Shown: piece after piece, positions 3,696 through 63,203 of the stretch
Layout of the letters: each line of letters starts with the position of its first letter
How positions within the stretch are numbered: position 1 is the first letter of the stretch
DNA from: an uncultured Gemmatimonadales bacterium
GTDB taxonomy: Bacteria; Gemmatimonadota; Gemmatimonadetes; Gemmatimonadales; Gemmatimonadaceae
Reading direction: 5' to 3'
DNA: 64,000 nt
Assembly (NCBI GenBank): GCA_963851265.1
Contig: CAWKNZ010000002.1
Span: 1,376,001-1,440,000, forward strand
Program-made: the position numbers and the translations under genes
Notes under the pieces: model-generated
Seen by the model: only the letters and a program-made list of their open reading frames with translations
Database searches by the model: none
Told to the model about the DNA's origin: nothing

Positions 3696-3776
3696 CGGAG
3701 GCGTGGGGCGCGGTACGGCCCTGCGTACGGCAACTGTGATACCCCGCCGGTCCGTACGCGGTACGCGCGGGTGCGG

Positions 3777-5522
3777 TTAGGCCCGCGCGCCGGCCACGCG
3801 GCGTCTCAGACGCCGGACGATCGCGGCGCTCTCCCCCTCGCCGAGGGCTGCGGTCGCGCCGAGGTAGACAACCCCGTACGCCCCGCAGACCACGGCGGCG
3901 AGCGCGAGCGCGGGGAGTCGCGCGGCGATGAACTTGACGCCGAGCCCGACCGCGGCAGCCGCAAGCGCAGCGCCCCAGAGACGCGCGACGGCCGCGGCCG
4001 GGATGCCGGTCCGGCCGATCCGGCGGTTGAGCGCGCGCCGGAGCAGCACGAACTCGACCCACCCGGCCAGGCCGGCGGTCACGGTCAGCCCTGCGGTCCC
4101 CCAGCGCGGGTTGATCCCGAGCGCGCGCGGCAGCGGGACGGCCGCGACGTACCCCAGCGCGAGGGTGAGCCCGACGCGCACGAGCGCGAACCGGAGCGGC
4201 GTCCGCGTTTCCTTGAGCGCATAGAACGTCGACGAGTACAGCCGACCGAGCGTCGAGGCGAGCAGCCCGACCGCACTCCCGGCGAGCGTACCCCAAACCC
4301 AGATGACGTCGCCCCGCGTGAAACGGCCGTAGTGGAACGCCGCACCGGCAATCACGTCTCCGAGTGCGACGAACGCGACCGCCGACGGGACGACGAAGAA
4401 CGCGATCCGGCGGAGTCCCGACGAGAGCCGCTCGCGCAACATCGCCGCGACCTCCTCCGCACGCCCCTGCAAGCTCGACATCGCCGGCAACTCGGCCGCC
4501 GAGATGCTCATCCCGAACAGACTGCCCGGCAGAAGGTACAGGGACTGCGCATTCGCGAACACCGTGAGCGCCCCCGGCGCGATCAGGCTGGCGAGCGTAC
4601 TGTCGATGAACGCGCTGAGCTGCACGACGCCGCGGCCGACGAACACGGGGCCGAAGTTGCGGACGACGGTTCGCACGTCGTCGCGCACCCGCGCGCGCAG
4701 CTCGGGCGACAGCCCGACGCGTGAGCGGAGCCCCGGAGCGACGCGCAGCACCGTCGGCACTTGGACGAGGAACTGCACCGCACTCCCGACCACGACGCCC
4801 CACGCCAACGTGGTCGCAAGCCGGTCGTCGGCGAGGTGCCGCCCGCCCCAATGCACGAGCGTCGCGATCAGGACGACGTTCATTCCGACCGGCGCGAGGT
4901 AGGAGAGCAGGAACCGTCGGTGGCTATTCAGGATTCCGAGGCACCACGCGCTCATCACGAGCAGCCCGATCCCGGGAAACGTGATCCGCACGAGCTGCAC
5001 GGCGAGCTCACGCGTCGAGCCCCGAAAACCCGTCGCGACGAGCGTGACCAGCAGCGGCGTCGCGAGCATCCCGAGCGCGACGAGCACGGCGATCGTAAGC
5101 GCGAGCAGCGCGCCGACTGCGGCCGCGACGCGATCGGCCTCGTCGCGCTCGCCGCCGCCGAGCAGGCGCGCGTAGACCGGGATGAACGAGGCCGAGAGCA
5201 CGCCCTCGCCGAAGAGGTTCTGGAGGTAGTTCGGGATCTTCAGCGCCGCGTTGAACGCGTCGGCCGCGGCCCCGGCGCCGAGGTAGTGGCTGAACACCGC
5301 CGTGCGGACGAGCCCGAGGATGCGCGAGCACAGAATCCCGATCGCGATGAACGCTGCGAACCGCCCGGTGCGTTCGGGCGCGCGTGCCGCCGCGGTCGGC
5401 GGCGTTGGGTCGATCGCGCCAGGCGCGTCGGTCTGGGTGCCGTCACTCGTCGCCGCGGTGTCCGGTCCCGGCGTGGGGAGCACCGCCGACGGCGATCGCG
5501 GCGCTACCGGCGGGACGCGCAC
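3777..5522 (-). CDS. murJ: Lipid II flippase MurJ (start may be further downstream)
   Basis: SRILGLVR, ADAFNAALKIPN, FGEGVLSASFIPV, FYALKETRTP; many TM segments. Confidence 0.93.
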   Translation of the reverse strand: MRVPPVAPRSPSAVLPTPGPDTAATSDGTQTDAPGAIDPTPPTAAARAPERTGRFAAFIAIGILCSRILGLVRTAVFSHYLGAGAAADAFNAALKIPNYLQNLFGEGVLSASFIPVYARLLGGGERDEADRVAAAVGALLALTIAVLVALGMLATPLLVTLVATGFRGSTRELAVQLVRITFPGIGLLVMSAWCLGILNSHRRFLLSYLAPVGMNVVLIATLVHWGGRHLADDRLATTLAWGVVVGSAVQFLVQVPTVLRVAPGLRSRVGLSPELRARVRDDVRTVVRNFGPVFVGRGVVQLSAFIDSTLASLIAPGALTVFANAQSLYLLPGSLFGMSISAAELPAMSSLQGRAEEVAAMLRERLSSGLRRIAFFVVPSAVAFVALGDVIAGAAFHYGRFTRGDVIWVWGTLAGSAVGLLASTLGRLYSSTFYALKETRTPLRFALVRVGLTLALGYVAAVPLPRALGINPRWGTAGLTVTAGLAGWVEFVLLRRALNRRIGRTGIPAAAVARLWGAALAAAAVGLGVKFIAARLPALALAAVVCGAYGVVYLGATAALGEGESAAIVRRLRRRVAGARA

Positions 5523-5531
5523 GCGCAGGAC

Positions 5532-7157
5532 TCAGTCGGGACGCGCGGCCGCGAGTGGCCTCCCGGCCACGACGGCGTCGGCGTGCGCCCGGGCGCGCGC
5601 CAGCATGCGGTCGGTCAGTGCCGGCCCGTAGCGCGCGAGTAGCGGGAGGAAGCTGAGGACCCGCTCCTGCCGCGACCCGTTCGGCATGAGCGCGGCCTGC
5701 GCCGTCGCGAGCGTCCGCATCGCCGCGGCCTCACGCCGCTTGACGGCGGCGAGGGCGCGCCGCTCGAGGCGCGACACGCGCCCGCGCAACTGCAGTCGTG
5801 CGCCCTCGCGGGCGCGCTCGGTCAGGAGCGGGTCGCCCCCGCCCGTGACCGCGCCCAGCGCGGCGATCCGCGCGTCGATCGCGGCACCGAACGCCTCGAA
5901 CTCGCGCTCGAGCGCCGCCGGCGCGAGCCGCCGCGCCAGCGAGGTCTCGACGGCGCGCGGGTCGCGGAGCGCGTCGGCGTCGATGCCTAACGATGCGAGC
6001 GCGCGCGCCGCGCGCGGCTCGACGACCGTCCCCGACCACCGCGGGACCGCGAGCGGCGCAGGCACCGCGAGCGCCTCCGCGACCGCACTCACCTGCGCGA
6101 AGTACGCGTACTCGCCCGGCCCGGCGACGTAGGCGACGGTCGGCAGGATGCCGCGCTCGACGACCGGCCGGAGCAGCACGTTCGGCGCGAGCTCGCCGGG
6201 CGCGACGAGCGGGACCAGCGTGCGCGCCTCGTCCGTCCGAAGCCGCCGCTTGCGCCCGTCGTACTCCTCGCGAAAGACGAGGGAGAGCCCCGCGACCTCG
6301 CGCACCTGCGGCGTGAACCCGGCCGCGCCGATCACTGCGGACCGGGCGGCGAGCGCGTCCGCGATCGCCGCGCTCTTCAGCAACGCCCGCCGCATCAGCT
6401 GGAAGCCGGCAGCACGAGTCGCGGGGTGCGATGCGTCGAGCACCGCGATCCCGAGCGGTCCGAGCAACTCGCGGAGGAGTCGGACGTAGGCGTCGCCCGC
6501 GGTCCGCCCCGCGGCGTACGCGCGCTCGACGGCTTCGAGCGCGGGCGCGTGCGCCGCCGCGCCGCACGCGGCCGTGAGGCGCGCGCGCAGTGCGTCGACC
6601 TCGTCGCCCAACACGGCCCGCGACACCGGCGTCCCTTCAGGTGGCGCCTGCGTCAGCGCGAGCTCCTCGACCGCTCCGTCCCCCACGACGTACGCGCGGC
6701 GGCCTTCTTCCCAGTCCGTGTCGTCGGTCGCCGCCCAGAACACCGGCGCCACCGGCATCCCGGTCGCACGCTCAAGGCGCTCGGCCAGCGCGCGCGCGCT
6801 GAGCGCCTTTGCGAGCGTGTACAGCGGGCCACCGAACAGGCCGGGTTGCTGCCCCGTGGTGACGACTACTCCGGCCCCGCCGCCGACGCGCTCGAGCGCG
6901 CTCGCGGCGGGGCCCTCAGCCGCGAACGCCGGCGCGAGCAGGTCAAGCCACGCACCGGCGCGATACTGCTCGCGTACGACCTCCGCGCGCGCGGCCCACG
7001 CCGTCGGCCCGTCGGGCACGTCCACGTACCAGCTCGCGGCGGCCGCGGTGCCGGCGAGCGCGGCGCGCACGAGCGCGCCGCCGCCGAACGTTTCGGTCCG
7101 TACGTCGAGCGCGGGCGGTCGCGCGTCCAACGGGTCCAGCGCGTCGGACGCGCTCAC
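5532..7157 (-). CDS. bshC: Bacillithiol biosynthesis cysteine-adding enzyme BshC
   Basis: VVTTGQQPGLFGGPLYTLAKA, PVFWAATDDTDWEE, PNVLLRPVVE..LPTVAYVAGPGEYAYFAQ, QER. Confidence 0.88.
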   Translation of the reverse strand: MSASDALDPLDARPPALDVRTETFGGGALVRAALAGTAAAASWYVDVPDGPTAWAARAEVVREQYRAGAWLDLLAPAFAAEGPAASALERVGGGAGVVVTTGQQPGLFGGPLYTLAKALSARALAERLERATGMPVAPVFWAATDDTDWEEGRRAYVVGDGAVEELALTQAPPEGTPVSRAVLGDEVDALRARLTAACGAAAHAPALEAVERAYAAGRTAGDAYVRLLRELLGPLGIAVLDASHPATRAAGFQLMRRALLKSAAIADALAARSAVIGAAGFTPQVREVAGLSLVFREEYDGRKRRLRTDEARTLVPLVAPGELAPNVLLRPVVERGILPTVAYVAGPGEYAYFAQVSAVAEALAVPAPLAVPRWSGTVVEPRAARALASLGIDADALRDPRAVETSLARRLAPAALEREFEAFGAAIDARIAALGAVTGGGDPLLTERAREGARLQLRGRVSRLERRALAAVKRREAAAMRTLATAQAALMPNGSRQERVLSFLPLLARYGPALTDRMLARARAHADAVVAGRPLAAARPD

Positions 7158-7181
7158 GGCTTACCGCTCACTCTGATCGGG

Positions 7182-7643
7182 TCACTTGTGGTACGGCTCC
7201 CCGCGCGCGAGCGTACCGGCGCGGTAGAGCTGCTCGACGAGCACGACTCGGGCGAGGTCATGCGGCAGCGTCCACGGCGCAAGGGCAAGCCGCACGCCCG
7301 CGCGCGCCCTCAACGCGCCGTCGAGGCCGAGCGCGCCCCCGATCACGAACGCGACGTCGCGCGCGGCGTCGCGTTGGGCCGCGAGCCACGTCGCGAATCG
7401 CGTGGACGTCCACATGTCACCGCGCTCGTCGCAGGCGACGAGTGTCGCGCCCGCCGGAACGCGCGCGCCGAGCCGCTCACCCTCGCGGGCGACGACCTGT
7501 TCCGGCGGCAGCGAGCGCGCCGACTCCTCGCGCACCTCGACGGTCCGAAGCGGCCAGTAATGCGCGGCGCGCCGTTCGTACTCCGCGGCCACGTCGGCGA
7601 GCGCCCCCCGCGCGCGCCCGACCGCGATCACGACCACCGCCAT
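7182..7643 (-). CDS. rlmH: 23S rRNA m3-pseudouridine1915 methyltransferase
   Basis: FVIGGALG, TLPHDLARVVLVEQLYRA..GEPYHK. Confidence 0.95.
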   Translation of the reverse strand: MAVVVIAVGRARGALADVAAEYERRAAHYWPLRTVEVREESARSLPPEQVVAREGERLGARVPAGATLVACDERGDMWTSTRFATWLAAQRDAARDVAFVIGGALGLDGALRARAGVRLALAPWTLPHDLARVVLVEQLYRAGTLARGEPYHK

Positions 7644-7670
7644 GCGACCGCGGCGAGTCCCGGTCGCGCG

Positions 7671-11962: not shown

Positions 11963-13024
11963 TTATCCGCGCCCGGCGGAGCCGCGGAGCGCCGGCATCG
12001 TGCGCTCGATCTCGGCCACGATTTCGAGTGCGACGGCGAGCGCCTCGCGCCCGTCGGACCCCGTCACAGCAACGGGCTGCTCGCCCCGCAGCGTCGCGGC
12101 GAAGCTTTCGAGTTCGAGCCGCAACGGCTCCCCCTCCGGCGCGTCCAGCGGTACGCGCTCGACGAACGCCGCGAGGTCGACCGGTCCGGCCGCAACGCCC
12201 GGGGCCGTGCCCGCCCCCCCGGCAAGTCCGGCCGCGATCGCCGCGAAGCTCACGTCGTCGCGCAGGCGAAAGAACTCGCCCGTCCCCGCCGCGAGGTCGA
12301 GAGAGAGGTAGCCACTCTGTTGAAAGATGCGGAGCTTCCGCAACCGGTCGCGTGACACGCGACTCGCCGTGATGTTGGCAACGGCGCCGGACGAGAACGC
12401 GAGGCGCGCGCTCGCAATGTCGACGGTCGGCGTGAGCACGGGAACGCCCGTCGCGCGCACCTCCCGCACACCGCCGCCGACGAACGTCCGCACGAGGTCG
12501 ATGTCGTGGATCATCAGGTCGAGCACCACGGCGACGTCGGACCCGCGCGTCGTGAACGGCGCGAGCCGGTCGCTCTCGATGAACCGCGGCGCGTCGACAT
12601 ACGGGAGCGCGGCGCGCACCGCGCGGTTGAACCGCTCGACGTGTCCCGTCTGCACGGTCGCGCCCGCAGATGCCGCGATCGCGAGCAGCTCGTCCGCCTC
12701 GGCGAGCGTGGTCGTGATCGGCTTCTCGATCAACAGGTGCTTGCCACGAGCGAGCGCCGCCCGCGCGACCTCGAAGTGCGCCGGCGTCGGCACGACGACC
12801 GTGAGGGCGTCCGCCGCGTCGAGCAGCGCGTCGTAGTCGTCGTGCGCGCGCACCCCCAACGCGTCGGCGACGTGCGCGCGCCGCGCCGCGTCGGCGTCGT
12901 AGAACCCGGCGAACCGCACGCCCGGCAGGTCGCGCAGGATCCGGGCGTGGTGATAGCCTAACGCGCCCGCGCCGACCACGCCGAGGCGCGGGCCGCCGTC
13001 GCGTCCCGCGGCCGACCCGCTCAG
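11963..13024 (-). CDS. Gfo/Idh/MocA oxidoreductase, GnnA-like (probable CTG start at 13024; first GTG at 12979)
   Basis: RLGVVGAGALGYHHAR, EKP, GHVERFN, VVLDLMIHDID, ANITASRVS; between lpxA and lpxB. Confidence 0.85.
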   Translation of the reverse strand: MSGSAAGRDGGPRLGVVGAGALGYHHARILRDLPGVRFAGFYDADAARRAHVADALGVRAHDDYDALLDAADALTVVVPTPAHFEVARAALARGKHLLIEKPITTTLAEADELLAIAASAGATVQTGHVERFNRAVRAALPYVDAPRFIESDRLAPFTTRGSDVAVVLDLMIHDIDLVRTFVGGGVREVRATGVPVLTPTVDIASARLAFSSGAVANITASRVSRDRLRKLRIFQQSGYLSLDLAAGTGEFFRLRDDVSFAAIAAGLAGGAGTAPGVAAGPVDLAAFVERVPLDAPEGEPLRLELESFAATLRGEQPVAVTGSDGREALAVALEIVAEIERTMPALRGSAGRG

Positions 13025-13800
13025 ATGCTCACCCCGCGGCCGCTCGACGCGACGAAGTCGAGCAGCGTCCGGACCTCCGGGACCGACATGTCGAGCTCCT
13101 CACGCGCCCGGTTCACGGCCGCGCTGAGCATCAGATCGGACCGGAACAGGAGGCGGTAGGCGCGCTTCAGCTCCAGCAGCGTCGCCTCGCTGAACCCGCT
13201 TCGCTGCAAACCGACCGCGTTCAGACCGTAGAGCTTGATCGGGTTGCCCACGGCCTTCACGTACGGCGGTACGTCCTTCGCGACGCGCGAGCACCCGCCG
13301 ATGAACGCGTGTCGCCCGATCCGTACGAACTGATGGACCGCCGACACGCCCGACACGATCGCCCGGTCCTCGATCGTCACGTGGCCGGCGAGCTGCACGG
13401 CGTTCGACAGGATCACGCCGTCGCCCACGTGGCAATCGTGGCCGAGGTGCACGTACGACATGACGAAGCTGCCCCGGCCGACGGTCGTCCGCTGCGACTC
13501 GGCGGTCCCGCGATTGATCGTCGCGTACTCGCGGATCGTCGTGTCGTCGCCGATCTCGACCCACGTCTCCTCGCCGCGGAACTTCAGGTCCTGCGGATCA
13601 CCGCCTAACACCGTCCCGATCCCGACCTTCACGCGCGCGCCGAGCCGCACGTTACGTTCGAGCGTCGCGCGCGCCGAGAGCACCGACCCCTCGCCGATCA
13701 CGCACCCCTCGCCGACCATCGCCCACGGTCCCACCTCGACGTCAGCCGCGAGCTCCGCTCGCGGATGCACCACCGCCGTACGATCGATCCGAACCGTCAC
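13021..13800 (-). CDS. lpxA: Acyl-ACP--UDP-N-acetylglucosamine acyltransferase
   Basis: Hexapeptide repeats, PQDLKF, IREYATINRGT, HLGHDC, VHQFVRIG, KDVPPY, GLNAVGL. Confidence 0.96.
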   Translation of the reverse strand: MTVRIDRTAVVHPRAELAADVEVGPWAMVGEGCVIGEGSVLSARATLERNVRLGARVKVGIGTVLGGDPQDLKFRGEETWVEIGDDTTIREYATINRGTAESQRTTVGRGSFVMSYVHLGHDCHVGDGVILSNAVQLAGHVTIEDRAIVSGVSAVHQFVRIGRHAFIGGCSRVAKDVPPYVKAVGNPIKLYGLNAVGLQRSGFSEATLLELKRAYRLLFRSDLMLSAAVNRAREELDMSVPEVRTLLDFVASSGRGVSI

Positions 13801-15161
13801 CGGTCGCGCACCATCGCGGACATGTCCGCCTCGGCCACCACCTCGCCGTCGACCTTCGCAACACCGCGCATCCGGCATACCGGGCCACGCACCTGGACCA
13901 GGTCCAGCTCGAAGCGCAACTGGTCGCCTGGCCGGACGGGACGGCGAAACTTCACGTTGTCGAGTGTCGTGAAGTAGACGACCTTCGCCTCCGGGTCCGG
14001 CAACGATCCGAGCAGCAGCATTCCGCCCGTCTGGGCCATCGCCTCGACGATCAGCACGCCGGGCATGATCGGGTGCCCCGGAAAGTGTCCCTGGAAGAAG
14101 GGCTCGTTGATCGTCACGTTCTTGATCCCGACCACGCGCGACTTGGGCTCCAACTCGACGATGCGGTCCACGAGGAGGAACGGATAGCGGTGCGGGAGCA
14201 CCTTCATGATCTCTTCGATGCCGAGCACGGTCGGTCGTGGCGAGAGCGAGGTGGCGGGTGGGTCGAGCGCCGGCGCGCTCGGGCGCGCGGCGGCGACGAG
14301 CGCGCGAACGAAGCGAATCGTACCGCGATGGCTCGGGCGATGCGCGACCACACGCGCGCGAACTCTGCGTCCCGCGAGCGCCAGGTCGCCCACACAGTCG
14401 AGCGCCTTGTGGCGCACGAACTCGTCGGGCCAGCGGAGCGTGCCGTCGACGACGCTCGTGTCGTCGAGGACGACGGCGTTCGCCGTCGACGCGCCCTGAA
14501 TGAGGCCGCTGGCGCGCAACGCGTCCACCTCGCGCACGAACCCGAACGTGCGCGCCGGCGCGAGTTCCTCCGCGAACGTTTCTGGCGACACGAGGTAAGT
14601 GCCGCGCTGGGCGCCGATCAGCGGGTGGTCGAACGCGATCTCGACGTCGAGCGAGAACGCGGCGGCGGGGTGCGCCTCGTAGACGCTGTCGCCGTACGCG
14701 ACACGCACGGGCGCGTCGAGCTCGAGCCAGTCGACCGCGCCGCCGCTGGCGACGATCCCAGCGGACCGTAACGCCGCGACGAACGGCGCCGCGCTGCCGT
14801 CGAGAATCGGCGGCTCGGCGGCGTCGAGGTCGACGAGAATGTCGTCGATCCCGAGCCCCGCGATCGCGGCCAGCACGTGCTCGACCGTGTGCAGCGCCGA
14901 CTCGCCGGACCCGAGCACCGTATGCCGCTCGCGCTCGACGGCGACGTCGACACGCGCCGGGATCTCCGGCGCTCCCGTGAGGTCGGTGCGCCGAAAGACG
15001 ACGCCCGCGCCGGGCGCCGCCGGCCGAAACGTGATCGTACACGGACGACCGAGGTGGAGCCCGACCCCGCGCAACTCGACCGAACGCGCGACCGTCCGAC
15101 GCGGCTGCGTCGGCGCGGCACGGGACGCTGCGCGCCGTTCGTCCGAACGCGGCGCGGTCAC
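13797..15161 (-). CDS. lpxC-fabZ: Bifunctional LpxC/FabZ fusion
   Basis: [32 protein letters not shown] (LpxC) in one ORF with [34 protein letters not shown] (FabZ). Confidence 0.95.
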
Positions 15162-16267
15162 GCGTCCTCCGCGCTGCGCGCCGCGAGGAGCCGCTCGAGC
15201 GGTCGGAGCATAGCCGCGAGACGAAACAGCGCCGCGTGGGCCCGGAGCGACTCGCGTTGCGGTCGCGCAGGATACCCGCCCCATGTCTCGCCGGCCGGAA
15301 CGTCGCCGAACACGCCGGCCTGCCCCGCCACTCGCGCGCCGCGCCCGATCGTGACGTGTCCGCCAACCCCGACTTGCCCGGCCAGAATCACTCCGTCCTC
15401 CACGTTCGCAGAACCCGCGATCCCGACCTGCGCCATCAGCAAGCAGCGCTTGCCGATTCGGACGTTGTGTCCGACGTGCACGAGATTGTCGATCTTGGTG
15501 CCCGCGCCGATGACCGTGTCACCGACGCTCCCCCGGTCGATCGTCACGTTCGCGCCGATCTCGACGTCGTCCTCGATCACGCAGCGCCCCACGTGCGGAA
15601 TCTTGCGGTGCGCGCCGTCCGCGTAGACGTACCCGAACCCGTCGCTCGCGACGCGCGCGCCGCTGTGCACGATCACGCGCTCGCCTAACACCGCGCCCGG
15701 ATAGAGCGTCACGTGCGGCCGCACCTCGCTCGCGCGCCCCACCTCCACTCCGGCCCCGACGACGGCGTGCGCGCCGATCCACGCGCCGTCTCCGACCGTC
15801 GCGCCCTCGCCGATCGTCGCGTAGGGGTCGACGACCACGTCCGCGCCGAGGCGCGCGCCGGCGCCGATGCAGGCCGTCGGGTGCACACCCGGCACCCGCG
15901 GCCGCGCGGGGTGGAGCGCGCCGAGGAGGGCGAGCACGGCCTCGTGCGGCCGATCGACGACGACGCGCACCGCACCGGGCGCGCCGGGCGCGTCGGCGAG
16001 CGCCGGCGACACGAGCACTACCGCCGCGCGCACTCCGCCAAACGATGGCACGTACCGGACGTCCGCGAGGAAGGTCGCGGCGTCGTCACCGGATTCGGAC
16101 AGCGCGGCGACACGCCGGACGCACACGGGCGTGCCGACATCTGCCTCGGCGACGCGCCCGCCCGTGAGGCGGACGACGTCGTCGAGGGTCAGCGCCGGCG
16201 CGTGCGCGTCGGACAGGTCGCGCGTCGCGCCTGCCGGCCGCGGCGCGGGTTCGGCCGCGTCGGGCAC
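15158..16267 (-). CDS. lpxD: UDP-3-O-acylglucosamine N-acyltransferase
   Basis: [46 protein letters not shown]. Confidence 0.96.
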
Positions 16268-16964: not shown

Positions 16965-19523
16965 TCAGTACTGGATGTTGCCGAACCGGAAGTGCAGCTG
17001 CCACTTCGGGGCCGGGCGCGTGCCTAACGCCTTGTTGTTGGCGTCGATGTACGCGCGCCGGTCGAAGCCGTACGCGTAGTCGAGCCCGAGGGGCCCGAGC
17101 GGGGTGACGATGCTCGCGCCGACGCCGGCGCCGCGGAACAGGCGCGTCGGGTCGAAATCCGTCGCGCGCGCGTAGCTGTTGCCGGCGTCGAAGAACGTGT
17201 TGAGGTAGAGCTGTTGGTTGAACCGCAGCCCCAGCTCCGCCGTCGACGTGAAGAAGGCGTTGCCGAACGCGTTCCGCCCCGAGCTCGCCGACGTGAGCTC
17301 CGCGTTCGGGTCGAACCCGCGCGGCGTGATCGAGAACTCGGGGTACCCGCGCAGCTGCTGACCGTACTGCACGCCCCCGACCGCGAACGCCTGCTGCGCG
17401 AAGAACGCGCCGGGGTCGCCGATGATCGCACCCCCGCGCCCGGTGAGCCCGAACACGATCTTCTTCGGCTGATCGCCGAGTCCGCCGCCGAACTGCCCGA
17501 GCGTGACGAACGACCCGGCCTGACCCGTGACGCGCTGGAACGTCGTGCGCCCGCCTAACGGACCGCCGTTGAGGTCGAACGTGAGCGCCTGGATCCCGCC
17601 GGCGCTCGGGTACGGCAGATCGATGCGCGTGTCGTGCGTGAAGTCGAACCCGAGCGCCGAACGGAAGCAGTTCTCGAGGCACGTCGTCGTCGAGTACCCG
17701 AGGTTCGCCAGCGTCGACAGGTCCGCGTTGCGGTACGAGGTCGCTTCCGCCGTGTACGACACGCCGAGCGTCGAAAAGAACGAGCCCGGCACCGGAAACC
17801 CGAGCCGAACGCTCGCGCCCGTCGTCACCGTGTTGTCGCCGAAACCCGTGATCGTGTACCGGCTCTGGCGCCGGTAGATGCTCGTCGTCCCAGACACGCG
17901 CGACTTCCGCAGCGCGGGGTCCGTGTACTGCAGCTCGAAGTCGTTGATGTACCGCCCGAAGTTCCAGTTCACCGAGCCGCGCTTGCACTGCCCGAACAGG
18001 TTCGGCTGGTCGACCCCGATGAACCCGCCGACGCCCACGCCCGACCCGCCGACCGACGCGCCGAAGTTGAAGCTCCCAGTGCGCTTCTCCTTGACGCGGA
18101 AGATCACGTCGAGGTCGCCGTTCTCGTTCGCGGTTCGCGTGTCCGGCTGCGCGAGCGGCGTCTCGAAAAAGTTCAGGTTGCCGACGTTCTGCCAGCTGCG
18201 CAGCAAGCGATCCTGGTTGAACACGTCACCGGGCAGGATCACGAGTTGGCGGCGGATGCACTCGTCGGTCGTGTAGTCATTCCCCGCGATCTCGATGCGG
18301 TTGATGATCGCGGGCGTCTTCTCGTCGATCTGCCACCGCAGGTTCACCACCGGCGTCGAGTCCGGTCCCACCTTCGCGCGCTCGACGACCGGCGTCACGC
18401 GCGCGTAGATGTACCCCTCGTTCCGATACGCGCCCTGCACGCGCTCCGTCGCCGCGTCCCAGCGCGCCTGATCGAAGACGTCCTTGTCGGGCGCGCGGAA
18501 CTTGCCGCGGACCACGCCCGCGACGCGCTCCGTCAGCGTCGGACCCGCGCCGTTGAACGGGTAGTACTGCTTCAACTCGTCGGTCGAGAAACGCCGGTTA
18601 TCCGTGATCTCGAAGCGGCCGATCTTGTACTGCGGGCCCTCGCGCACCGTGAGGTCGACGACGGCCTTCCCACGCTCGCGATCGATGATCAGCGTGTCCT
18701 TCAGGACCTGAAAGTCGAGGAGCCCGTTGTTCGCGTACGTCGCCGGCAACCGCTCCGCGACGTCGCCCGAGAACTTGTCCTCGTCGAACGCGCCCTTCCG
18801 CCACCACCAGAACCCTTCGGGCTTGGTCTGCATCGCGCCGACGACCTGATCGGTCGTCAGCTTCTTGTTGCCGTGCACGCGCACGCCCGAGATCGCGAGG
18901 CGGCGTCCCTCGTCGATGTGGAAGACGATTTTGAGGCGGTTGTCCGCGGTGACCGTGCTCTCCGGACGCACCCGTGCGAGGTAGAAGCCGCGGGCCTGAT
19001 AGCTCGAATCGAGGCGAGCCGTCAACCCCGCGACCTTGGACGGGTCGACCGGCGAGCCGATCGGCAGATCCAGCTTGCCGCGCGCCGACCCGAGGTCGCT
19101 CGCCGTGCCCACGACGTCGACGGACTGCAACACGGGGCGCTCGCGCACCGTGAACACGATGGCCGCGCGCCGCCCCGCACCCGCGACCTCGCATCCGACA
19201 CGAACGTCGTCGAACTCGCCGGTCGCGTACAGCCGCCGGATCGCGCCCTGAAGTTGCGGCGTGCCGACCTCCGTCCGGGGCTGGATCCCGATGTCGCCGA
19301 TCGCGGTCGTCGCACTCACGCGCGACAGCCCACGCACGATGACCGTGTCCGGCGCCGCACACCGGGCGGCCGAATCGGCGGGCGCCATGGGCGCGCTCGG
19401 GGCCGTGCCGGCGGGTGCCGCGGGAGTGGGAGTTTGTGCGGCGGCCTGGCCGACCGCCGCTGCGAGCAACGCCGAGATACCGGCCGTGACCGGGGTCGCG
19501 ACGCGAGGAGACACGAAACGCAT
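16965..19523 (-). CDS. bamA: Outer membrane protein assembly factor BamA
   Basis: POTRA repeats, VKEKRTGSFNFG, NLFG, LRGY, TPLGPLGLDYAYG, C-terminal beta signal. Confidence 0.95.
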   Translation of the reverse strand: MRFVSPRVATPVTAGISALLAAAVGQAAAQTPTPAAPAGTAPSAPMAPADSAARCAAPDTVIVRGLSRVSATTAIGDIGIQPRTEVGTPQLQGAIRRLYATGEFDDVRVGCEVAGAGRRAAIVFTVRERPVLQSVDVVGTASDLGSARGKLDLPIGSPVDPSKVAGLTARLDSSYQARGFYLARVRPESTVTADNRLKIVFHIDEGRRLAISGVRVHGNKKLTTDQVVGAMQTKPEGFWWWRKGAFDEDKFSGDVAERLPATYANNGLLDFQVLKDTLIIDRERGKAVVDLTVREGPQYKIGRFEITDNRRFSTDELKQYYPFNGAGPTLTERVAGVVRGKFRAPDKDVFDQARWDAATERVQGAYRNEGYIYARVTPVVERAKVGPDSTPVVNLRWQIDEKTPAIINRIEIAGNDYTTDECIRRQLVILPGDVFNQDRLLRSWQNVGNLNFFETPLAQPDTRTANENGDLDVIFRVKEKRTGSFNFGASVGGSGVGVGGFIGVDQPNLFGQCKRGSVNWNFGRYINDFELQYTDPALRKSRVSGTTSIYRRQSRYTITGFGDNTVTTGASVRLGFPVPGSFFSTLGVSYTAEATSYRNADLSTLANLGYSTTTCLENCFRSALGFDFTHDTRIDLPYPSAGGIQALTFDLNGGPLGGRTTFQRVTGQAGSFVTLGQFGGGLGDQPKKIVFGLTGRGGAIIGDPGAFFAQQAFAVGGVQYGQQLRGYPEFSITPRGFDPNAELTSASSGRNAFGNAFFTSTAELGLRFNQQLYLNTFFDAGNSYARATDFDPTRLFRGAGVGASIVTPLGPLGLDYAYGFDRRAYIDANNKALGTRPAPKWQLHFRFGNIQY

Positions 19524-26242: not shown

Positions 26243-26246
<4 letters not shown>
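24921..26246 (-). CDS. lolE: Lipoprotein-releasing ABC permease (single LolC/E-type)
   Basis: [59 protein letters not shown]. Confidence 0.88.
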
Positions 26247-27826
<1,580 letters not shown>

Positions 27827-27830
<4 letters not shown>

Positions 27831-30820: not shown

Positions 30821-30997
30821 TCACGGGGACGGAATCTCGATCGCCTCGTCCACCAGCATGATCGGGATGTCGTCCCGGACCGGGTATCGAAGCCGGCACT
30901 GCGGGCAGTCGAGCGCGGCCTGGTCCTCTCGGTAAGTCAGCGGTCCCTTGCACCGCGGACACACGAGTACGGCGAGCAGTTGAGGCGAGAGGCTCAT
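30821..30997 (-). CDS. Trm112/YcaR family protein
   Basis: MSLSPQLLAVLVCPRCKGPL..CPQCRLRYPVRDDIPIMLVDEA; ATGA overlap with era stop. Confidence 0.92.
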   Translation of the reverse strand: MSLSPQLLAVLVCPRCKGPLTYREDQAALDCPQCRLRYPVRDDIPIMLVDEAIEIPSP

Positions 30998-31929
30998 CGC
31001 TCGGACGCCGGCGGGAGATGATACCCGAAGCGCCGGAGTGCCCGACCGTCGCGTCGCCAGTTGTGAAGAACCTTTACCCACAAATCGAGATACACAGCGG
31101 CTCCGATGAACGTCTCGATCTTCGTCCGTGACGCGCGTCCGATCTCGCGCAGGCGTCCGCCTCGTGCGCCGATGAGGATGCCGCGCTGCGAATCCCGCTC
31201 GACGTACAGCGTCGCGCGAATGTATACAGGACGCCGCGACTCGCGGAATTCGTCGATCTCGCACGCGAGCGCGTATGGGACCTCGTCCTCGAGCGTCTCT
31301 AGCGCGGTCTCGCGGATCATCTCGGCGACGAAGTAGCGCACCGACTGCGTGCTGATCTCGTCCTCCGGATATAGAAACGGGCTTTCCGGCAACGCCACGG
31401 TGATGCGCTCGACGAGCGCTTCGACGCCTTCGCCCGACTGCGCGGAGATCCAGAGTGCGTCGCGGAGCTCGGCCGCGGCGCGCGCGGGATGCCCGGGCGG
31501 GAGCACGTCCGACTTGTTGGCGACGCGCAGCACGGGTGCGCGGAGCGGCGCGCTCGCGCCGGCGGCGCGCGCGAGATCGAGCCCCGCGTCGGCGAGATCG
31601 CCCGATGCGTCGACGACATGAACGATGACGTCTGCGTCGCGGAGCGCATCGCGCGCGGTCGCCTGCATCGCCTCGTGAAGCGCGTACCGGGGCTCGAGCA
31701 GGCCGGGCGTGTCGAGGAACACGAGCTGTGCGAGCGGCTCGCTGCGGATCCCGACGACGCGATCGCGCGTCGACTGCGGCTTCGAGCTCGTGATTGCGAG
31801 CTTCTCGCCGACGAGCCGGTTGAGCAGCGTGGATTTACCAGCGTTAGGCCGCCCGGCGATCGCGACGTACCCCGCGCGCGTTCGGGGCGCTAGCGCGGCC
31901 GGTGTGGACGGCGGGTCGGGATCAGGCAT
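30994..31929 (-). CDS. era: GTPase Era
   Basis: GRPNAGKSTLLN, PQSTR, DTPG, NKSD, ISA, KH domain ending LDLWVKV. Confidence 0.96.
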   Translation of the reverse strand: MPDPDPPSTPAALAPRTRAGYVAIAGRPNAGKSTLLNRLVGEKLAITSSKPQSTRDRVVGIRSEPLAQLVFLDTPGLLEPRYALHEAMQATARDALRDADVIVHVVDASGDLADAGLDLARAAGASAPLRAPVLRVANKSDVLPPGHPARAAAELRDALWISAQSGEGVEALVERITVALPESPFLYPEDEISTQSVRYFVAEMIRETALETLEDEVPYALACEIDEFRESRRPVYIRATLYVERDSQRGILIGARGGRLREIGRASRTKIETFIGAAVYLDLWVKVLHNWRRDGRALRRFGYHLPPASER

Positions 31930-32228: not shown

Positions 32229-35179
<2,951 letters not shown>

Positions 35180-35340
35180 CCGCATTCTGGGTGGGCAGGC
35201 GTCACTTGTGTAGCGTTAGCGCGCAATCGCCTAACGCGACACGTCCTTCTCGTTCCCAGCAACGCACCCGATCACCGTCACTGACGGCCGATCGAGCTGG
35301 CGTGCTCGGTTCGATTCCGTTCCCATTCACTGCCACATCG

Positions 35341-35485: not shown

Positions 35486-37016
<1,531 letters not shown>

Positions 37017-37165
37017 AGTGTTTGAAACGCTCAACCCGAACGCGGTTCCCGCTGAACGCGGTTACCCGCGTCCGGAATCACAATCGAATGTCAGGATGAA
37101 CTCTCCCCGACGCCCTGACGCGTCGGATCATCGAGTCCGCCTCGCACATCCTCGATCTCACTACG

Positions 37166-44190: not shown

Positions 44191-44208
44191 GTGCGAGTTG
44201 GGACGGCG

Positions 44209-45006
44209 TTAGGCGGCGAACGTCGGGATCGCGCCCGGCAAGCCGAACAGGCGACGGGCGTTGTCTACGGTCTGCGCCGCGAGTTCGGCGGGATCGCTGC
44301 CGCGCAACTCGGCCAGACGACGCACGGTGCACTCGACCCACGCGGGCTCGTTGCGCCGGCCGCGATGTGGCACGGGCGCGAGATACGGGGCATCGCTCTC
44401 GACGAGCAGCCGGTCTGCCGGTACGGTGGCAAGCGCGGCCGCGTTATCCCACCGCTTGAACGTGATCATGCCGCTGAAGCTCACGTACCAGCCTACACGG
44501 ACGGCCGCGGCGGCGAGGTCGGGTGGGCCCGCGAAGCAGTGCAGGACGCCGCCGACTCCCGCGCGTTCGGCGTCGTTCAGCAGCGAGTGCGTGTCCTCGT
44601 CTGCCTCGCGCGAGTGGACGACGAGCGGGCGTCCGGTTTCGGCCGCCAGCGCGAGCTGGGCGTCGAGGGCGCGGCGTTGCGCGTCCCGCGGCGCGTGATC
44701 GTAGTGGTAATCGAGACCGCATTCCCCGACCGCGACCGCCCCGGCGTCGAGGAGCGCTCGCAAGCGAGGCACGTCGCGCGCGCCGTCGAATGCGGCCGCG
44801 TCGTGGGGGTGCACGCCCGCGGTGAACACGACGAACCCGGAGTACGCGTCGGCTATGCGGCGTGCGCGTTCGGCCGCCTCCACCGACTCGCCGATGCAGA
44901 CCACGGCGAGCGCGCCGGCCGCGCGGGCGCGCTCGACGACGGTCTCGCGGTCGCCGTCGAACGCGGGGTCGGCGAGGTGCGTGTGGCTGTCGACGAACGG
45001 CAGCAC
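44209..45006 (-). CDS. tatD: TatD family DNase
   Basis: DSHTHL, GVHPH, VGECGLDY, VHSREA, LHCF, ESDAPYLAP; start estimated. Confidence 0.92.
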   Translation of the reverse strand: MLPFVDSHTHLADPAFDGDRETVVERARAAGALAVVCIGESVEAAERARRIADAYSGFVVFTAGVHPHDAAAFDGARDVPRLRALLDAGAVAVGECGLDYHYDHAPRDAQRRALDAQLALAAETGRPLVVHSREADEDTHSLLNDAERAGVGGVLHCFAGPPDLAAAAVRVGWYVSFSGMITFKRWDNAAALATVPADRLLVESDAPYLAPVPHRGRRNEPAWVECTVRRLAELRGSDPAELAAQTVDNARRLFGLPGAIPTFAA

Positions 45007-45035
45007 GACGGACGCTCCCACGCGGTCCGGGAGCG

Positions 45036-58839: not shown

Positions 58840-58872
58840 AGGCGGCGTTTTTCGCTCAATCTTTCCGATACG

Positions 58873-59322: not shown

Positions 59323-60260
59323 AGGAACTCGCCCTCACCCTCGTCCTCGTCACGGCGGCCTGCGTCGTCGCCGTGGCGCTCACCCCGGCCGTCGCGCACG
59401 CGTGGACCCCGGGCACGCACGTGTTCCTCGGCGACGCGGTCCTGCGCGTGCTCGACCTGCTGCCGAACGCCGTAGCCGCGCTCCTGCGCGAGTTCCCGAA
59501 CGATTTTCTGTACGGATCGATCGCCGCCGATACGAGCATCGCGAAGAAGTACGTACCGGTCGGGCGGCACTGCCATTCGTGGCAGGTCGGCCACGAGATC
59601 GCGGCCGAAGCTCCCGACGCGGCGCTCCGCGCGTTCGCGCTCGGATACCAGGCGCATCTCGCGGCCGACGCGGTCGCGCACAACTATTTCGTTCCGCGGC
59701 AACTGGCGGTCACGGCGAGCACGTCGGCGCTCGGACACAGTTATTGGGAGAGTCGGTTCGAGACGCACCTCGCGGAGGGTGCGGCGCGACGCGCGCGCGA
59801 GCTCATCCTCCTCGACCACTCCGCGGCCGACGGACATCTCGACCGGATTCTCAGCCCCACGATCTTCAGCACGCCGACCAACCGCCGAATCTTCCGCGGT
59901 ATGGTGCACGCGGCCGACAGCGACTCGTGGCAGCGCATCTTCGGGCTGATGACCGAGAATAGCCGGTGGGAGCTGACCGACGAGGAAGTCGCGCCGTACA
60001 TCACGCGGTCGTTCGACTACATCGTCGACTGGCTACGGCGCGGCGCAGAGTCGGAGCCCGCGCGGCTCGATCCGTCGGGGGACGACGCGCTGAGTCAGGC
60101 GAAGCGCGTGCGGCGCGCCGCGCTCCGGGCGGGTGGTGCGGTCGCGGCGCGCCGCGAGGCGGAGCGCCGCTTCGGGATGCCACCGACCACGCTGACCTAC
60201 GCGGCCGACGTCCCGTCGTCGCTGCTCAGTCTGGGATCCGGGCGGCGAGTAGCGCGTTGA
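59319..60260 (+). CDS. Zinc-dependent phospholipase C / P1 nuclease-fold protein
   Basis: Signal peptide AHA|WTPGTH, FLYGSIAAD, HCHSW, GYQAHLAADAVAHNYFVP, HSYWE. Confidence 0.85.
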   Translation: MKELALTLVLVTAACVVAVALTPAVAHAWTPGTHVFLGDAVLRVLDLLPNAVAALLREFPNDFLYGSIAADTSIAKKYVPVGRHCHSWQVGHEIAAEAPDAALRAFALGYQAHLAADAVAHNYFVPRQLAVTASTSALGHSYWESRFETHLAEGAARRARELILLDHSAADGHLDRILSPTIFSTPTNRRIFRGMVHAADSDSWQRIFGLMTENSRWELTDEEVAPYITRSFDYIVDWLRRGAESEPARLDPSGDDALSQAKRVRRAALRAGGAVAARREAERRFGMPPTTLTYAADVPSSLLSLGSGRRVAR

Positions 60261-61707
60261 GGCGCTTCGGGTCCGCGGTGCCCTTCGACTTCTTCATCAC
60301 GAGCCCGACCAGCACGCCCTGCAGCTTGCGCTCACCGGCGAGGTAGCGTCGGGCCTCGTCGGGGCGCTCGTCGAACACCTCGTCGATCCACTTCCGCAGC
60401 GGCGCGTCGTCGCTCACCTGGGTGAGCTTGTCGCGCTCGGCGATCCGGGCCGGTGCCTCGCCCGTGCGACGCATCACGTTGAACACCGCGGTGCCGGCCG
60501 CGCGGCTGAGCGACCCGTCGCGGACCATCCCGAGCAACGCCGCGAGATCGTCCGGTCTCACGCGGACCGCGAACTGGTGCGGCGACTCACCCGTCTCGTT
60601 GAGCGCGGTGAGCACGTCGCGCGTGACCCAATTCGCGGCGGCCTTCGCGTCGCCGTGGATGCGCGCGACCGACTCGTAGTAGTCGGCGAGCGTGGGGTCG
60701 GCCGCGAGCACGTCGACGTCCTGGAGCGACAGGCCGTGCTCCTTGCGCATGCGGGCGCGCCGCGCGACGGGAAGCTCGGGCAGTGCGGCACGCTGTGCGT
60801 CGATCCAGTCCTGCGTCAGCAGGAGCGGCGGCAGGTCCGGCTCGGGGAAGTATCGATAGTCGTGGCTTCCTTCCTTGGAGCGCGCGGGACGGACCTCGTT
60901 GCGCGCGGCGTTCCAGAGCATCGTCTGCTGCTCGACGCGGCCGCCCTCGGCGAGGAGCGCGCACTGGCGCGCGAACTCGACCTCGAGCGCGCGCTCGACA
61001 CCCGAGAACGAGTTCATGTTCTTGATCTCGCACTTGGTCCCGAGCTTCTGCTCGCCGTGCCGGCGTGCGCTGACGTTCGCGTCGACACGGAGCGAACCCT
61101 CCTCCATGCTCGCGTCGCTCGCGCCGACGTACTGCACGAGCTGCTTGAGCGCGCGCAGGTATGCGCCCGCCTCGGCCGACGAGCGCATGTCGGGCTCGCT
61201 CACGATCTCGACCAGCGGCACCCCGGCGCGGTTGAGGTCGATGGCCGTCTCGCGCGGGAATCGGTCGTGGAGCGACTTGCCCGCGTCCTCCTCCATGTGG
61301 ACGCGCGTGACGCCGACCGTGATCGGCGAGCCGGCGTCGGTCTCGCCGATCTGCACCGAGCCGCCGGTCGCGAGCGGCCGGTCGAACTGCGAGATCTGGT
61401 AGCCTTTGGGCAGGTCGGGGTAGAAGTAGTTCTTGCGCGCGAAAATCGAGACGGGGTGGACCGTGCACCCGAGTGCGAGGGCGGCGCGCGTCGCGAGTTC
61501 AACGGCGCGGCGGTTGAGCACCGGGAGCGCCCCCGGGAGTGCGAGGCAGACGGGGCACGTGTTCGCGTTGGGCGCGTCGCCGAACGCCGTCGGACAGTTA
61601 CAGAACGCTTTCGTCCGGGTGTCGAGCTGCAGGTGCACCTCGAGCCCGACCACCATTTCGTAGTCGCGCGTCCAGTCGGCCGCGCGCGCGCGCGCCGGCG
61701 CGGTCAC
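60226..61707 (-). CDS. gatB: Asp/Glu-tRNA amidotransferase subunit B
   Basis: [60 protein letters not shown]. Confidence 0.97.
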
Positions 61708-63203
61708 GCGACGCCTCCCGCGGCGACGCTCGGAACGGCGAGCGCGCGTTCGAGCGCGCCGGCCGCGCGGAACATCGTCGCCTCGCCGAAGTGCGGAGCG
61801 ATGATCTGGCCGCCGACCGGCAGGCCGGCGACGGCGCCGATCGGCACGCTCATCGCGGGCACGCCCGCGAGGTTGGCGGTCGCGGTGAAGATGTCGCTGA
61901 GGTACATCTCGTACGGGTCGGACAGGGCGCCTAACGGGAACGCCGTGGTGGGCGTCGTGGGCGTGAACAGGAGGTCGACGCCGTCGAACGCGCGGGCGAA
62001 GTCGCCGGCGATCAGCCCGCGCACCTCCTGCGCCTTGCGGTAGTACGCGTCGTAGTAGCCGTGAGATAGCACGTAGGTGCCGAGCAGGATGCGCCGGGTG
62101 ACCTCGGGGCCGAAGCCCTCCTCGCGCGTGCGCTCGTACAGCGCGCGGAGCGAGTCGGACGCCGCGCGCGGTCCGTAGCGCACGCCGTCGAAGCGCGCGA
62201 GGTTACTCGACGCCTCGGCGGGCGCGAGGATGTAGTAGACCGGGATCGCGAGGTCGGTGTGCGGCAGCGACACGTCCTTCACCGTCGCGCCCAACGCGCG
62301 CAGCCGGTCGAACGCGGCGTCGGTGAGCTCGCGGATGGCCGGGTCGAGCCGCTCCGGGAAGTACTCCCTCGGGCGCCCGATCTTGAGCCCGTGGAGCGGG
62401 CCGCCGTGCGCCGTCCCCTCGGCGCTGTCGAACTGCAGCGACGGTACGGGGACGTCGGCGCTCGTCGCGTCGTGCGGGTCGCGGCCGCTGATGACCTCCA
62501 GCGCGAGCGCGGCGTCGTCGACGGTGCGGCCGAACACGCCGACCTGGTCGAGCGAGGACGCGAAGGCGACGAGCCCGTACCGGCTCACGCGGCCGTAGGT
62601 CGGCTTGACGCCGACGACGCCGCAGAACGCGGCCGGCTGCCGTACCGACCCGCCGGTCTCCGAGCCTAACGCGATGCGCACCACGCCCGCGGCGACCGCG
62701 GCGGCCGAGCCGCCGGAGGACCCGCCCGGGACGCGCGACGGGTCGACCGGGTTGCGCGTCGGTCCGTAGGCCGAGTGCTCGGTGGAGGAGCCCATCGCGA
62801 ACTCGTCCATGTTGGTCTTGCCGACGACCACCGCGCCCGCGTCGAGCAGGCGGGCGACCGCAGTGGCCTCGTAGGGGCTCACGTAGCCGGCGAGGACCTT
62901 CGAGCCGCACGTCGTGTGCAGCGCGAGGTCGGCGAGGTTGTCCTTGACGGCGACGGGAACGCCGGCGAGCGCGCCGGTGTGCGGGAGGCGCGCGGCGTCG
63001 CCGGACGCGCTACGGTCGCGGGCGGCCGACATCGCCGCCTGCGGCGTCGCGTGGAGGTCGACGAAGGCGCGGATGTCGGCGGCTTCGAGGCGCGCGGCCG
63101 CGGCGAGGCTCGCCGTGACCGCCGCGTCGCGCGCGAGGGAGCCCGAGCGGACCGCGTCGCCTAACGTGGCCGCGGGGAGGTCGAGGAGGTCGAGTGCGCT
63201 CAC
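61704..63203 (-). CDS. gatA: Asp/Glu-tRNA amidotransferase subunit A
   Basis: [49 protein letters not shown]. Confidence 0.97.

Follow-up and report, generated by a model that had tools for sequence, protein, structure and literature searches.

The window considered here, that is, the whole stretch of DNA that was analysed, is 64,000 nucleotides long, and consists of positions 1,376,001 to 1,440,000 of contig C2 from the genome of a soil bacterium (G000; 4.60 Mb, 12 contigs, labelled C1, C2 and so on, 73% guanine plus cytosine or GC). It carries, along with a ribosomal RNA operon, genes which Pfam identifies as encoding MurJ, BshC, a GFO/IDH/MocA oxidoreductase, LpxA, LpxD, BamA, Era, TatD, a GatA-type amidase and LysS, in keeping with the names that had been given to them in an earlier, sequence-only reading of the same DNA. 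Dispersed over these genes is a word of seven letters, GTTAGGC, or GCCTAAC on the opposite strand, which that reading had singled out as over-represented. All 14 of the copies it had located are present exactly where it placed them (Table 1), 3 of them reading GTTAGGC on the plus strand and 11 on the minus strand. The expectation for the window is 2.34 copies, as based on 100 dinucleotide shuffles, the largest count among these being 6 and none reaching 14.

Ten of the copies take the form NNG-TTA-GGC, i.e., are codons for Leu-Gly, two supply stop codons as GCC-TAA-C, one reads CCT-AAC, and one is found in the 16S-23S spacer, all of which is as previously described. The same can be said of the shorter GTTAG/CTAAC, of which the window holds 19 instances, with the five that are not part of the word all lying in 23S, spacer, 16S or tRNA. 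As to the estimate that about half of the TTA codons noticed are in the word, the count is 9 of the 21 found in called genes of the window.

Table 1. Copies of the word in the window (window positions), followed by attC-like imperfect hairpins found elsewhere in G000
Feature	Position	Strand	Gene or region	State in relatives' loci
Word copy, GCC-TAA-C stop	3776..3782	+	murJ (3777-5483, -)	
Word copy, NNG-TTA-GGC (Leu-Gly)	5985..5991	-	bshC (5532-7157, -)	
Word copy, NNG-TTA-GGC	12956..12962	-	GFO/IDH/MocA oxidoreductase gene (11963-12979, -)	
Word copy, NNG-TTA-GGC	13603..13609	-	lpxA (13021-13773, -)	common to L001
Word copy, NNG-TTA-GGC	15683..15689	-	lpxD (15158-16267, -)	L001 = G-CTC-GGG
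Word copy, NNG-TTA-GGC	17022..17028	-	bamA (16965-19388, -)	common to L001
Word copy, NNG-TTA-GGC	17553..17559	-	bamA	L001 and L002 = CTC-GGC
Word copy, NNG-TTA-GGC	27462..27468	-	N-terminal ORF (27126-27830, -) of split lysS	L002 = GTTGGGC
Word copy, antisense NNG-CCT-AAC (Pro-Asn)	31843..31849	+	era (30994-31929, -)	
Word copy	35229..35235	-	16S-23S spacer (23S 32229-35178, 16S 35486-37018, both -)	
Word copy, GCC-TAA-C stop	44208..44214	+	tatD (44209-45021, -)	
Word copy, NNG-TTA-GGC	61929..61935	-	gatA (61704-63203, -)	
Word copy, NNG-TTA-GGC	62664..62670	-	gatA	
Word copy, NNG-TTA-GGC	63159..63165	-	gatA	
attC-like imperfect hairpin	L107:2936-3056		C10	
attC-like imperfect hairpin	L107:8558-8654		C10	
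attC-like imperfect hairpin	L107:16950-17046		C10	
attC-like imperfect hairpin	L107:17674-17792		C10	
attC-like imperfect hairpin	L106:1592-1708		C6	

Genes, here and below, are those called by a simple in-house caller (3636 in G000), and counts by reading frame are approximate for that reason. One item which the caller misses is the N-terminal open reading frame (ORF) of lysS. That gene (26243-27830, minus strand) is spread over two overlapping frames, the catalytic part occupying 26243-27346 and the N-terminal one the positions listed in Table 1, as the result of either a frameshift or an indel in the assembly.

A word read as DNA rather than as codons

Over the whole of G000 the word is present in 1762 copies, 885 on the plus strand and 877 on the minus, which is 0.38 per kb. 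Markov models predict 96 (order 2) or 126 (order 3), making for an excess of about 18-fold, or of 18- to 28-fold, and GTTAGGC is the most over-represented 7-mer genome-wide. Of all genomic occurrences of TTAG, 1762 of 2470 fall within it. Coding copies number 1281, as compared with 69.8 +/- 8.4 given 20 within-gene synonymous shuffles and 62 +/- 6 given 10 pooled resamplings, and the synonymous-shuffle null is itself a generous one, as it retains TTA codons that exist solely through the word. Of the 1288 TTA codons of this genome, 988 sit in the word. Where TTA precedes a Gly codon, that codon is GGC in 997 of 1021 cases, and 988 of these 997 TTA-GGC pairs are preceded by G. The sequence-only reading is therefore refuted neither by the codon-shuffled expectation nor by the letters before and after its TTA codons, these being the two outcomes that it had named as counting against it.

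The word proper is one letter longer. Position -1 is C in 1396 copies, T in 243, A in 54 and G in 69, with CGTTAGGC occurring 1396 times versus 50 expected; position +7 is G in 953, A in 390, C in 336 and T in 83; and farther out only codon periodicity is seen. The full form of the word is YGTTAGGC. As position -1 is a second codon position, the preference there is not synonymous noise, and occupancy at Leu-Gly sites varies with the preceding codon, being 18-25% for NCG, 6-10% for NTG and 1-4% for NGG and NAG, with 27% of NCG-Leu-GGC sites in the word state. Exactness is seen with one-letter neighbours of the word as well, 20 of 21 of which stand at 0.15 to 1.6 times expectation. That is, the excess falls sharply between the perfect word (18-fold) and its one-mismatch forms. 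The remaining neighbour, GTTGGGC, is at 2.2 times expectation. In the form YG-TTG-GGC it makes up 7.5-8.8% of its context versus about 0.7% elsewhere, it is the second commonest state facing a private copy of the word in a congener, and it is read as the word's main decay product or as an intermediate. Depletion of CTG before GGC was considered as well, as a sign of conversion, and was rejected as unspecific, as CTG is scarce ahead of every codon that starts with G.

The word is read as DNA and not as codons, with every usable frame, stops and spacers filled. There are 988 copies as NNG-TTA-GGC, 198 as antisense NNG-CCT-AAC, 108 as GCC-TAA-C stops, 78 as GT-TAG-GC stops, 71 as GC-CTA-AC and 24 as GTT-AGG-C, along with 295 that are intergenic, and of 124 GCC-TAA stops there are 120 in which C comes next. 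TTA is decodable, as tRNA-Leu(UAA) is present in G000. The sequence-only reading had proposed a lineage-specific signal at the level of DNA, independent of frame and overriding codon preference, and on this the counts, the frames, the codon shuffles and the relatives (below) are in agreement.

What has not survived is the claim of strand skew. It is correct that 11 of the 14 window copies are on the minus strand, i.e., that of the rRNA operon, but so too are 47 of the 50 called genes of the window, and with control for gene strand and for the supply of eligible peptides, sense and antisense occupancy of eligible sites are alike, at 940 of 7328 (12.8%) and 185 of 1273 (14.5%), respectively. Leu-Gly dipeptides (12,658) are commoner than Pro-Asn (1,870), and it is this, together with gene orientation, which gives rise to an apparent skew, including the sense excess of copies of 74%. 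On C2 the word is regionally biased 107:46 between 800 and 1350 kb and then 55:111 between 1350 and 1830 kb. That bias follows gene strand, with 365 genes on the plus strand versus 81 on the minus over the first of these regions, and then 104 versus 297. In strongly biased regions, genes on the majority strand display 12.6% sense and 12.8% antisense occupancy, and genes on the minority strand 11.3% and 5.0% (p 0.62 and 0.19). Copies in spacers are split 76:70 relative to transcription and 30:18 relative to the majority strand. In this 12-contig assembly, with ori and dif unmapped, no polarity is seen beyond gene strand. There is, that is, no replichore polarity of the kind displayed by Chi or by FtsK-orienting polar sequences (KOPS), which argues against those roles for the word.

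Placement otherwise is uneven in ways that do not involve strand. Density per kb is 1.27 in convergent spacers, 0.53 in tandem ones, 0.38 in divergent ones and about 0.36 in genes, with the peak falling where there is least constraint, and within genes there is a mild deficit in the first tenth only. When genes are ranked by native codon usage, occupancy climbs by quintile, from 6.8% in the lowest to 18.0% in the highest, and such a climb is the opposite of what would come of selection on translation.

Gaps between copies are overall near-exponential (mean 2592 bp, coefficient of variation 1.07) except that short ones are missing. The null in this case is the same number of copies (1125) as placed on 8601 eligible in-frame sites over 300 simulations. 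Gaps of less than 100 bp make up 0.18% of the total versus 2.9% expected, those of less than 200 bp 0.63% versus 5.6%, less than 300 bp 2.0% versus 8.2%, and less than 500 bp 6.4% versus 13.0%. None of the 300 simulations goes as low as this 2- to 16-fold depletion, nor does any with codon-score class kept. The 774 copies that are not TTA copies also avoid those that are (1.0% versus 5.8% within 200 bp; 0 of 300), and therefore this is not a codon effect. At the level of DNA, then, copies keep away from one another over distances of up to about 0.5 kb, which speaks for a benefit that saturates per segment of DNA rather than for a mutational hot spot.

Certain regions of the chromosome may be described as well. 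The largest word-free stretch of G000, which is 45 kb (C1 182,876-227,962), holds gidA, parA, parB and mnmE, and the region that includes it (L103-L105, C1:182001-232000) is 73-81% identical to two congeners versus 82-89% in the flanks. Separately, dnaA (C1:12048-12530) is located in a word-free gap of 15 kb. A word-free origin region was entertained as a conserved feature and then set aside, as it is real in G000 but in relatives is word-poor rather than empty, with copies lying 0.1 and 0.9 kb away from parB in G012, and 1.7 and 2.0 kb away in G004. In a handful of cases, e.g., C2:116118-116147 and C2:11211-11230, inverted pairs of the word form perfect GC-rich hairpins. Inverted pairs of DNA uptake sequences (DUS) occur in Neisseria terminators.

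Carriers, retention and turnover

BamA loci put this organism in the Gemmatimonadaceae, near a metagenome-assembled genome labelled Gemmatirosa sp. Genomes of relatives are labelled G001, G002 and so on, with loci of relatives as L001 and L002, and the tallies given for relatives cover 31 genomes, the unpublished G011 among them. Six genomes, that of the window included, are treated as clear carriers (G000, G001-G004 and G012), and G008, G017, G018 and G030, with their middling counts, are kept unclassified. The word is high in all five genomes of the genus (0.38-0.60 per kb), other high counts being those of G012 (7758 copies, 1.5 per kb), G034 (7133) and G033 (991). Counts are near zero in most other relatives, such as 11 in G009 and 54 in G035, and that of G021 comes in part from cassette arrays. 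In the congener G031, as represented by 400 kb, the word is divided 176:97 between strands.

On a FastTree phylogeny of 69 BamA rows, the 15 rows with at least 0.15 copies per kb all are found within one clade of 41 rows (support 100), with none among the 28 rows outside of it. At least seven label changes are required on this tree, though the number of carrier clades is about four to five since two of the 15 high rows are short, single-copy loci. The word, in other words, is confined to several Gemmatimonadaceae clades. Locus L002, with 89% BamA identity and no copy in 11.5 kb, was taken up as a possible close non-carrier and discarded, as its genome holds 2124 copies and the local absence is one of chance. 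Discarded too was a ‘ghost’ of decayed copies in non-carriers, i.e., an excess there of GTTGGGC, with ratios of 0.085-0.099 versus control ratios of 0.15-0.22.

Individual copies come and go. Of the six window sites that are alignable, two are common to L001. Over the 365 kb which can be aligned between G000 and G031 (79.3% identity), both genomes have the word at 89 sites, G031 alone has it at 153 and G000 alone at 50, with G-CTC-GGC the usual alternative state at a word site in the congener. Identity of 7-mers between these genomes is 28.6% for any 7-mer, 38% for the favoured GCTCGGC, 17% for GTTGGGC and 9% for GCTGGGC. Copies of the word thus are kept better than comparable unpreferred words, indeed beyond neutral expectation, yet they also are turning over.

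What might read the word

The reading that is preferred here, with a probability of roughly 45%, is by analogy with DUS and with the uptake signal sequences (USS) of other bacteria. YGTTAGGC, that is, may be a self-tag on double-stranded DNA that is spread by biased uptake and recombination. A component of the type IV pilus uptake apparatus would bind word-bearing fragments more readily, after which ComEA and ComEC would bring these into the cell and DprA would assist in their recombination. Because of this readier binding and import, alleles with the word would replace wordless alleles more often than the reverse, i.e., as molecular drive. The word would come to settle where its costs are least, which is at synonymous Leu-Gly and Pro-Asn sites, in stop codons and in the spacers of convergent genes, and it would decay mainly via GTTGGGC under genomic GC pressure. 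Copies would end up spaced apart because a second, nearby copy would add little. Hyper-abundance, independence of frame and strand, spacing, cross-species retention, lineage restriction and the presence of uptake genes are the observations on which this reading builds; from them we infer both the bias of uptake toward the word and the existence within that apparatus of a protein which reads it.

As to those uptake genes, ComEC, DprA and ComEA-like proteins are present in G000. The comEA-like gene (HHH_3, 199 amino acids) is directly upstream of pilB-pilT-pilC (L143:1615-6501, C7), in what looks like a competence-pilus operon. There is as well an orphan minor pilin (L141:1369-1890, minus strand, C7) that is conserved across Gemmatimonadales. 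This FimT-like pilin ends in SRLGRxR, without variation among the sequences aligned (30 of 30), and the model of the protein (predicted local distance difference test, pLDDT, 93.5) has the FimU/GspH/FimT fold, matching FimU (4ipu; E 2.6e-6, template-modelling or TM score 0.64) and FimT (7qyi; TM 0.46-0.50). The Legionella FimT, as described in PMC8897410, binds DNA via a C-terminal GRxR and often is encoded by an orphan gene. A FimT-like pilin with a GRxR tail, in combination with comEA-pilBTC, suggests that an ability to take up DNA exists in the Gemmatimonadales. Within the alignment of FimT-like pilins, an Arg column is found in 10 of 10 strong carriers versus 4 of 15 non-carriers, and a His column in 9 of 10 versus 1 of 15, though with few independent clades these columns are a lead only. 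A minor-pilin cluster (L144:1374-4397, C9) has matches of 33-58% in many distant relatives and of only 28-30% in congeners, and may represent a pilus module that is accessory or has been exchanged.

A number of points weigh against the self-tag reading. Uptake genes are found in carriers and non-carriers alike, and therefore the machinery does not explain who carries the word: FimT-like pilin orthologues are present in 29 of 31 relatives and in 23 of 24 further genomes, PilT in 31 of 31, and prepilin domains in 30 of 31, while two minor-pilin clusters are not carrier-specific. As judged by presence or absence, indeed, not one of IntI, Vsr, RecC, the AddB-like protein, prepilin domains, PilT, the FimT-like pilin and the two minor-pilin clusters tracks the word. 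Local identity to the congener does not correlate with word density (Spearman 0.13 and 0.006). Carriage is patchy and is of one identical word, without the dialects of the Neisseriaceae; non-carrier loci of at least 10 kb contain no other enriched word. The word is shorter (7-8 bp) than USS or DUS and its density, at 0.38 per kb, is lower. We know of no member of the Gemmatimonadota that is naturally transformable, and literature searches in which terms for Gemmatimonadota were combined with uptake sequences turned up no paper, supplements aside. Lastly, the match of the word to the core sites of integrons is left unexplained by a self-tag alone.

That match calls for some elaboration, as from it a rather different reader may be postulated, i.e., an integron-type tyrosine recombinase, or other binder of attC/attI cores, for which copies of the word would be single R-boxes in the role of secondary sites, decoys or by-products of abortive exchange. 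The integron core consensus, GTTRRRY (R' box), is fitted by GTTAGGC, as is its inverse, RYYYAAC (R'' box), by the complement, and GTTGGGC, the sole enriched neighbour, is a fit to GTTRRRY as well. Integrons are common in the order (18 of 31 genomes), and G000 itself possesses attC-like hairpins with a GCCTAAC...GTTAGGC core (C10 188-204 kb and C6 1.6 kb; Table 1). The attC-like cassette array of G000 sits far from its broken integrase. Among the 36 boxes of 18 attC-like pairs, from cassette arrays of the non-carriers G021 and G023, 35 have a C or a T at position -1, and at +7 there are 20 with G, 7 with A, 8 with C and 1 with T, such that dispersed copies and attC boxes display the same flank profile at these two positions. 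Positions +8 and +9, by contrast, are strong in attC (G 30/36, C 30/36) but unconserved in dispersed copies, no second box or L-box is found in the flanks of the 1762 copies, and adjacent inverted (-,+) pairs within 200 bp number just 11, of which about 8 (66-149 bp apart) have an attC-like geometry. IntI, moreover, is above the family cut-off in 13 of 21 low-count relatives, and in 3 of the 6 clear carriers is absent or broken, being a partial match with a stop in G001, lacking from G002 (78% complete), and in three frameshifted pieces in G012. It is split as well in G000, by a 2-kb insertion between its N-terminal part (L106:5202-6044) and last catalytic segment (2951-3322; C6). IntI thus is neither necessary nor sufficient for the word, and with IntI presence unrelated and no partner box, dispersed copies are not integron sites. 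Copies, in addition, lie within essential genes, where cassette insertion would harm. An integron-type reader is doubtful. The insertion into intI carries an ORF of 529 amino acids (L106:3540-5129) without a Pfam family, the locus as a whole being L106:2951-7469; an Rfam scan of the integron loci gave no match; and literature searches using the raw motif, or GTTAGGC plus integron, returned only primers.

Somewhat less improbable, albeit still on the unlikely side, is that the word is read inside of the cell rather than during uptake, by a double-stranded-DNA-binding factor that organises the nucleoid, acts in segregation or repair, or recognises the word as a mark of ‘self’ that restrains a nuclease or defence system, with selection keeping up roughly one copy every 0.5-3 kb. 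Such a reader would be equally in keeping with how abundant and exact the word is, with its strand symmetry and with its spacing and retention, the regular spacing being well suited to an architectural role. The word-free gaps at the parB region and at dnaA hint at a link to chromosome position, and the patchy occurrence of a single, unvarying word would be consistent with a gene for the reader that is mobile. The parB gap is not conserved, however, given the copies near parB in G012 and G004, no candidate protein has been found, and binding sites of known nucleoid proteins usually are degenerate rather than exact. As to the peak in convergent spacers and the higher occupancy where codon usage is more native, passive accumulation explains them no worse than site-specific function would. 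The remaining two readings both are unlikely, and more so than the others. For a polar chromosome signal, i.e., one which regulates a helicase-nuclease in the manner of Chi or guides FtsK in that of KOPS, one might point to the regional strand bias on C2 and to a pair of AddAB-like helicase-nuclease genes on C3 (244.5-250 kb; L139:3467-8942). Since eligible sites lack polarity and given as well how RecC and the AddB-like protein are distributed, this idea is largely refuted: the bias follows gene strand, with the antisense trend (12.8% versus 5.0%) even running in the wrong direction; RecC was not found in G000 and was found in 1 of 31 relatives; and the AddB-like protein of G000 was found in 7 of 31 relatives, none of them among the other five clear carriers. 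That it was not found in the four congeners, along with 31-45% identity in six more distant relatives, suggests an accessory or transferred locus. The excess of the word also is far above that of E. coli Chi. Of the roles listed by the sequence-only reading, then, uptake or protein binding fits best and the polar ones are not supported. A mutational or repair end product, which that reading had offered as an alternative, finds no support either. Such a product might come of very-short-patch repair tied to a methyltransferase, of CTAG avoidance or of sequence-specific conversion, and HIP1 (highly iterated palindrome 1) would be its closest analogue. Depletion of GCTAGGC (0.16) and CTTAGGC (0.15) is in its favour, as is the resemblance of patchy carriage to that of mobile restriction-modification genes. 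Neighbours of the word are not systematically depleted, however. Vsr is in none of the six clear carriers and in 3 of 31 relatives, all non-carriers. Methyltransferases of PF00145 (C5) and PF01555 (N4/N6) were not found in G000, other families than these not having been searched except for PF02384, which is found there only as frameshifted pieces. The usual change, CTC to TTA, takes two substitutions toward AT, and this where third codon positions of the genome are about 92% GC. Neither repulsion out to about 0.5 kb nor retention above neutral is predicted by local mutation. The PF02384 pieces belong to two N6 DNA methyltransferase genes, in four or five pieces in different frames (C7:771474-772495 and C9:923-1858), and are either pseudogenes or the result of long-read indel errors. 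In order of probability the self-tag thus is followed by the intracellular reader and then by the integron-type reader. IntI, Vsr, RecBCD and AddAB are excluded as determinants of the word, and whatever does read it is newly constrained by short-range repulsion, by equal occupancy of strands and by the match, flanks included, to the integron core.

Comparison with known systems

Chi, as recognised by RecBCD or AddAB, and KOPS, as recognised by FtsK, resemble the word in being short, asymmetric and over-represented within genes, and differ from it in that the word shows no polarity once gene strand is accounted for, is in far greater excess, and has no reader with a matching distribution. HIP1 (GCGATCGC) of cyanobacteria is a hyper-abundant short word of unknown function, found in genes and patchy among related lineages. 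It is, however, palindromic and linked to methyltransferases, whereas the present word is asymmetric and neither a matching methyltransferase (PF00145, PF01555) nor Vsr is found in G000. HIP1 is included in the reference list of PMC1939737.

With the R' and R'' boxes of attC and attI the word shares all seven of its letters as well as its preferences at -1 and +7, and true attC sites with this core are present both in G000 and in the order. Dispersed words differ in being single boxes without partner, hairpin or cassette, as found at synonymous sites in housekeeping genes, and how abundant they are bears no relation to whether IntI is present. Self-tag and integron core could nevertheless be combined. 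Were the uptake apparatus to prefer the attC core, then, with each cassette carrying the word twice, cassettes would be fished from environmental DNA and the word would then be spread over the entire chromosome by molecular drive. This is a speculative proposal and rather improbable, but if true it would tie natural transformation to the capture of integron cassettes via one DNA word.

The closest likeness is to USS and DUS, as known from Haemophilus and Neisseria. The USS of Pasteurellaceae has a core of 9 bp and the DUS of Neisseriaceae, which is read by the minor pilin ComP, is 10-12 bp. As with these, the word is exact, short and non-palindromic, is found in thousands of copies that are mostly inside of genes, and displays a sharp fall from perfect to one-mismatch forms. 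Spacing is relatively even, one orientation is favoured in reading frames, there is no orientation bias beyond gene strand, and the word is common to related genera; as judged by codon usage it may be rarer in less native DNA as well. Differences are a phylum without known competence, an AT-rich core in a 73% GC genome, identity of the word with an integron core site, and the finding of no ComP-like specific receptor, with preference in uptake here being predicted only. For DUS and USS, the account of Bakkali (2007; PMC1939737) gives 1471 and 1965 copies, with 65% and 35% within ORFs, a drop of 92- and 82-fold from perfect to one-mismatch forms, no orientation bias, and, following Karlin, even spacing. 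According to Mora et al. (2020; PMC7811141), new segments contain fewer uptake sequences, the even distribution of which is what molecular drive would lead one to expect; in van Passel (2008; PMC2346458) uptake sequences are described as favouring one orientation in reading frames. The present case is unusually testable, as the word is exact and carriers and non-carriers are close relatives. To our knowledge, sequence-specific uptake tags are known from only two families, both of host-associated Proteobacteria. If the self-tag reading is true, then the word would be a third independent instance, found in an abundant soil phylum, in which case self-preferring exchange of DNA would be more widespread than these two families, and a handle on gene flow in soil communities would be at hand.

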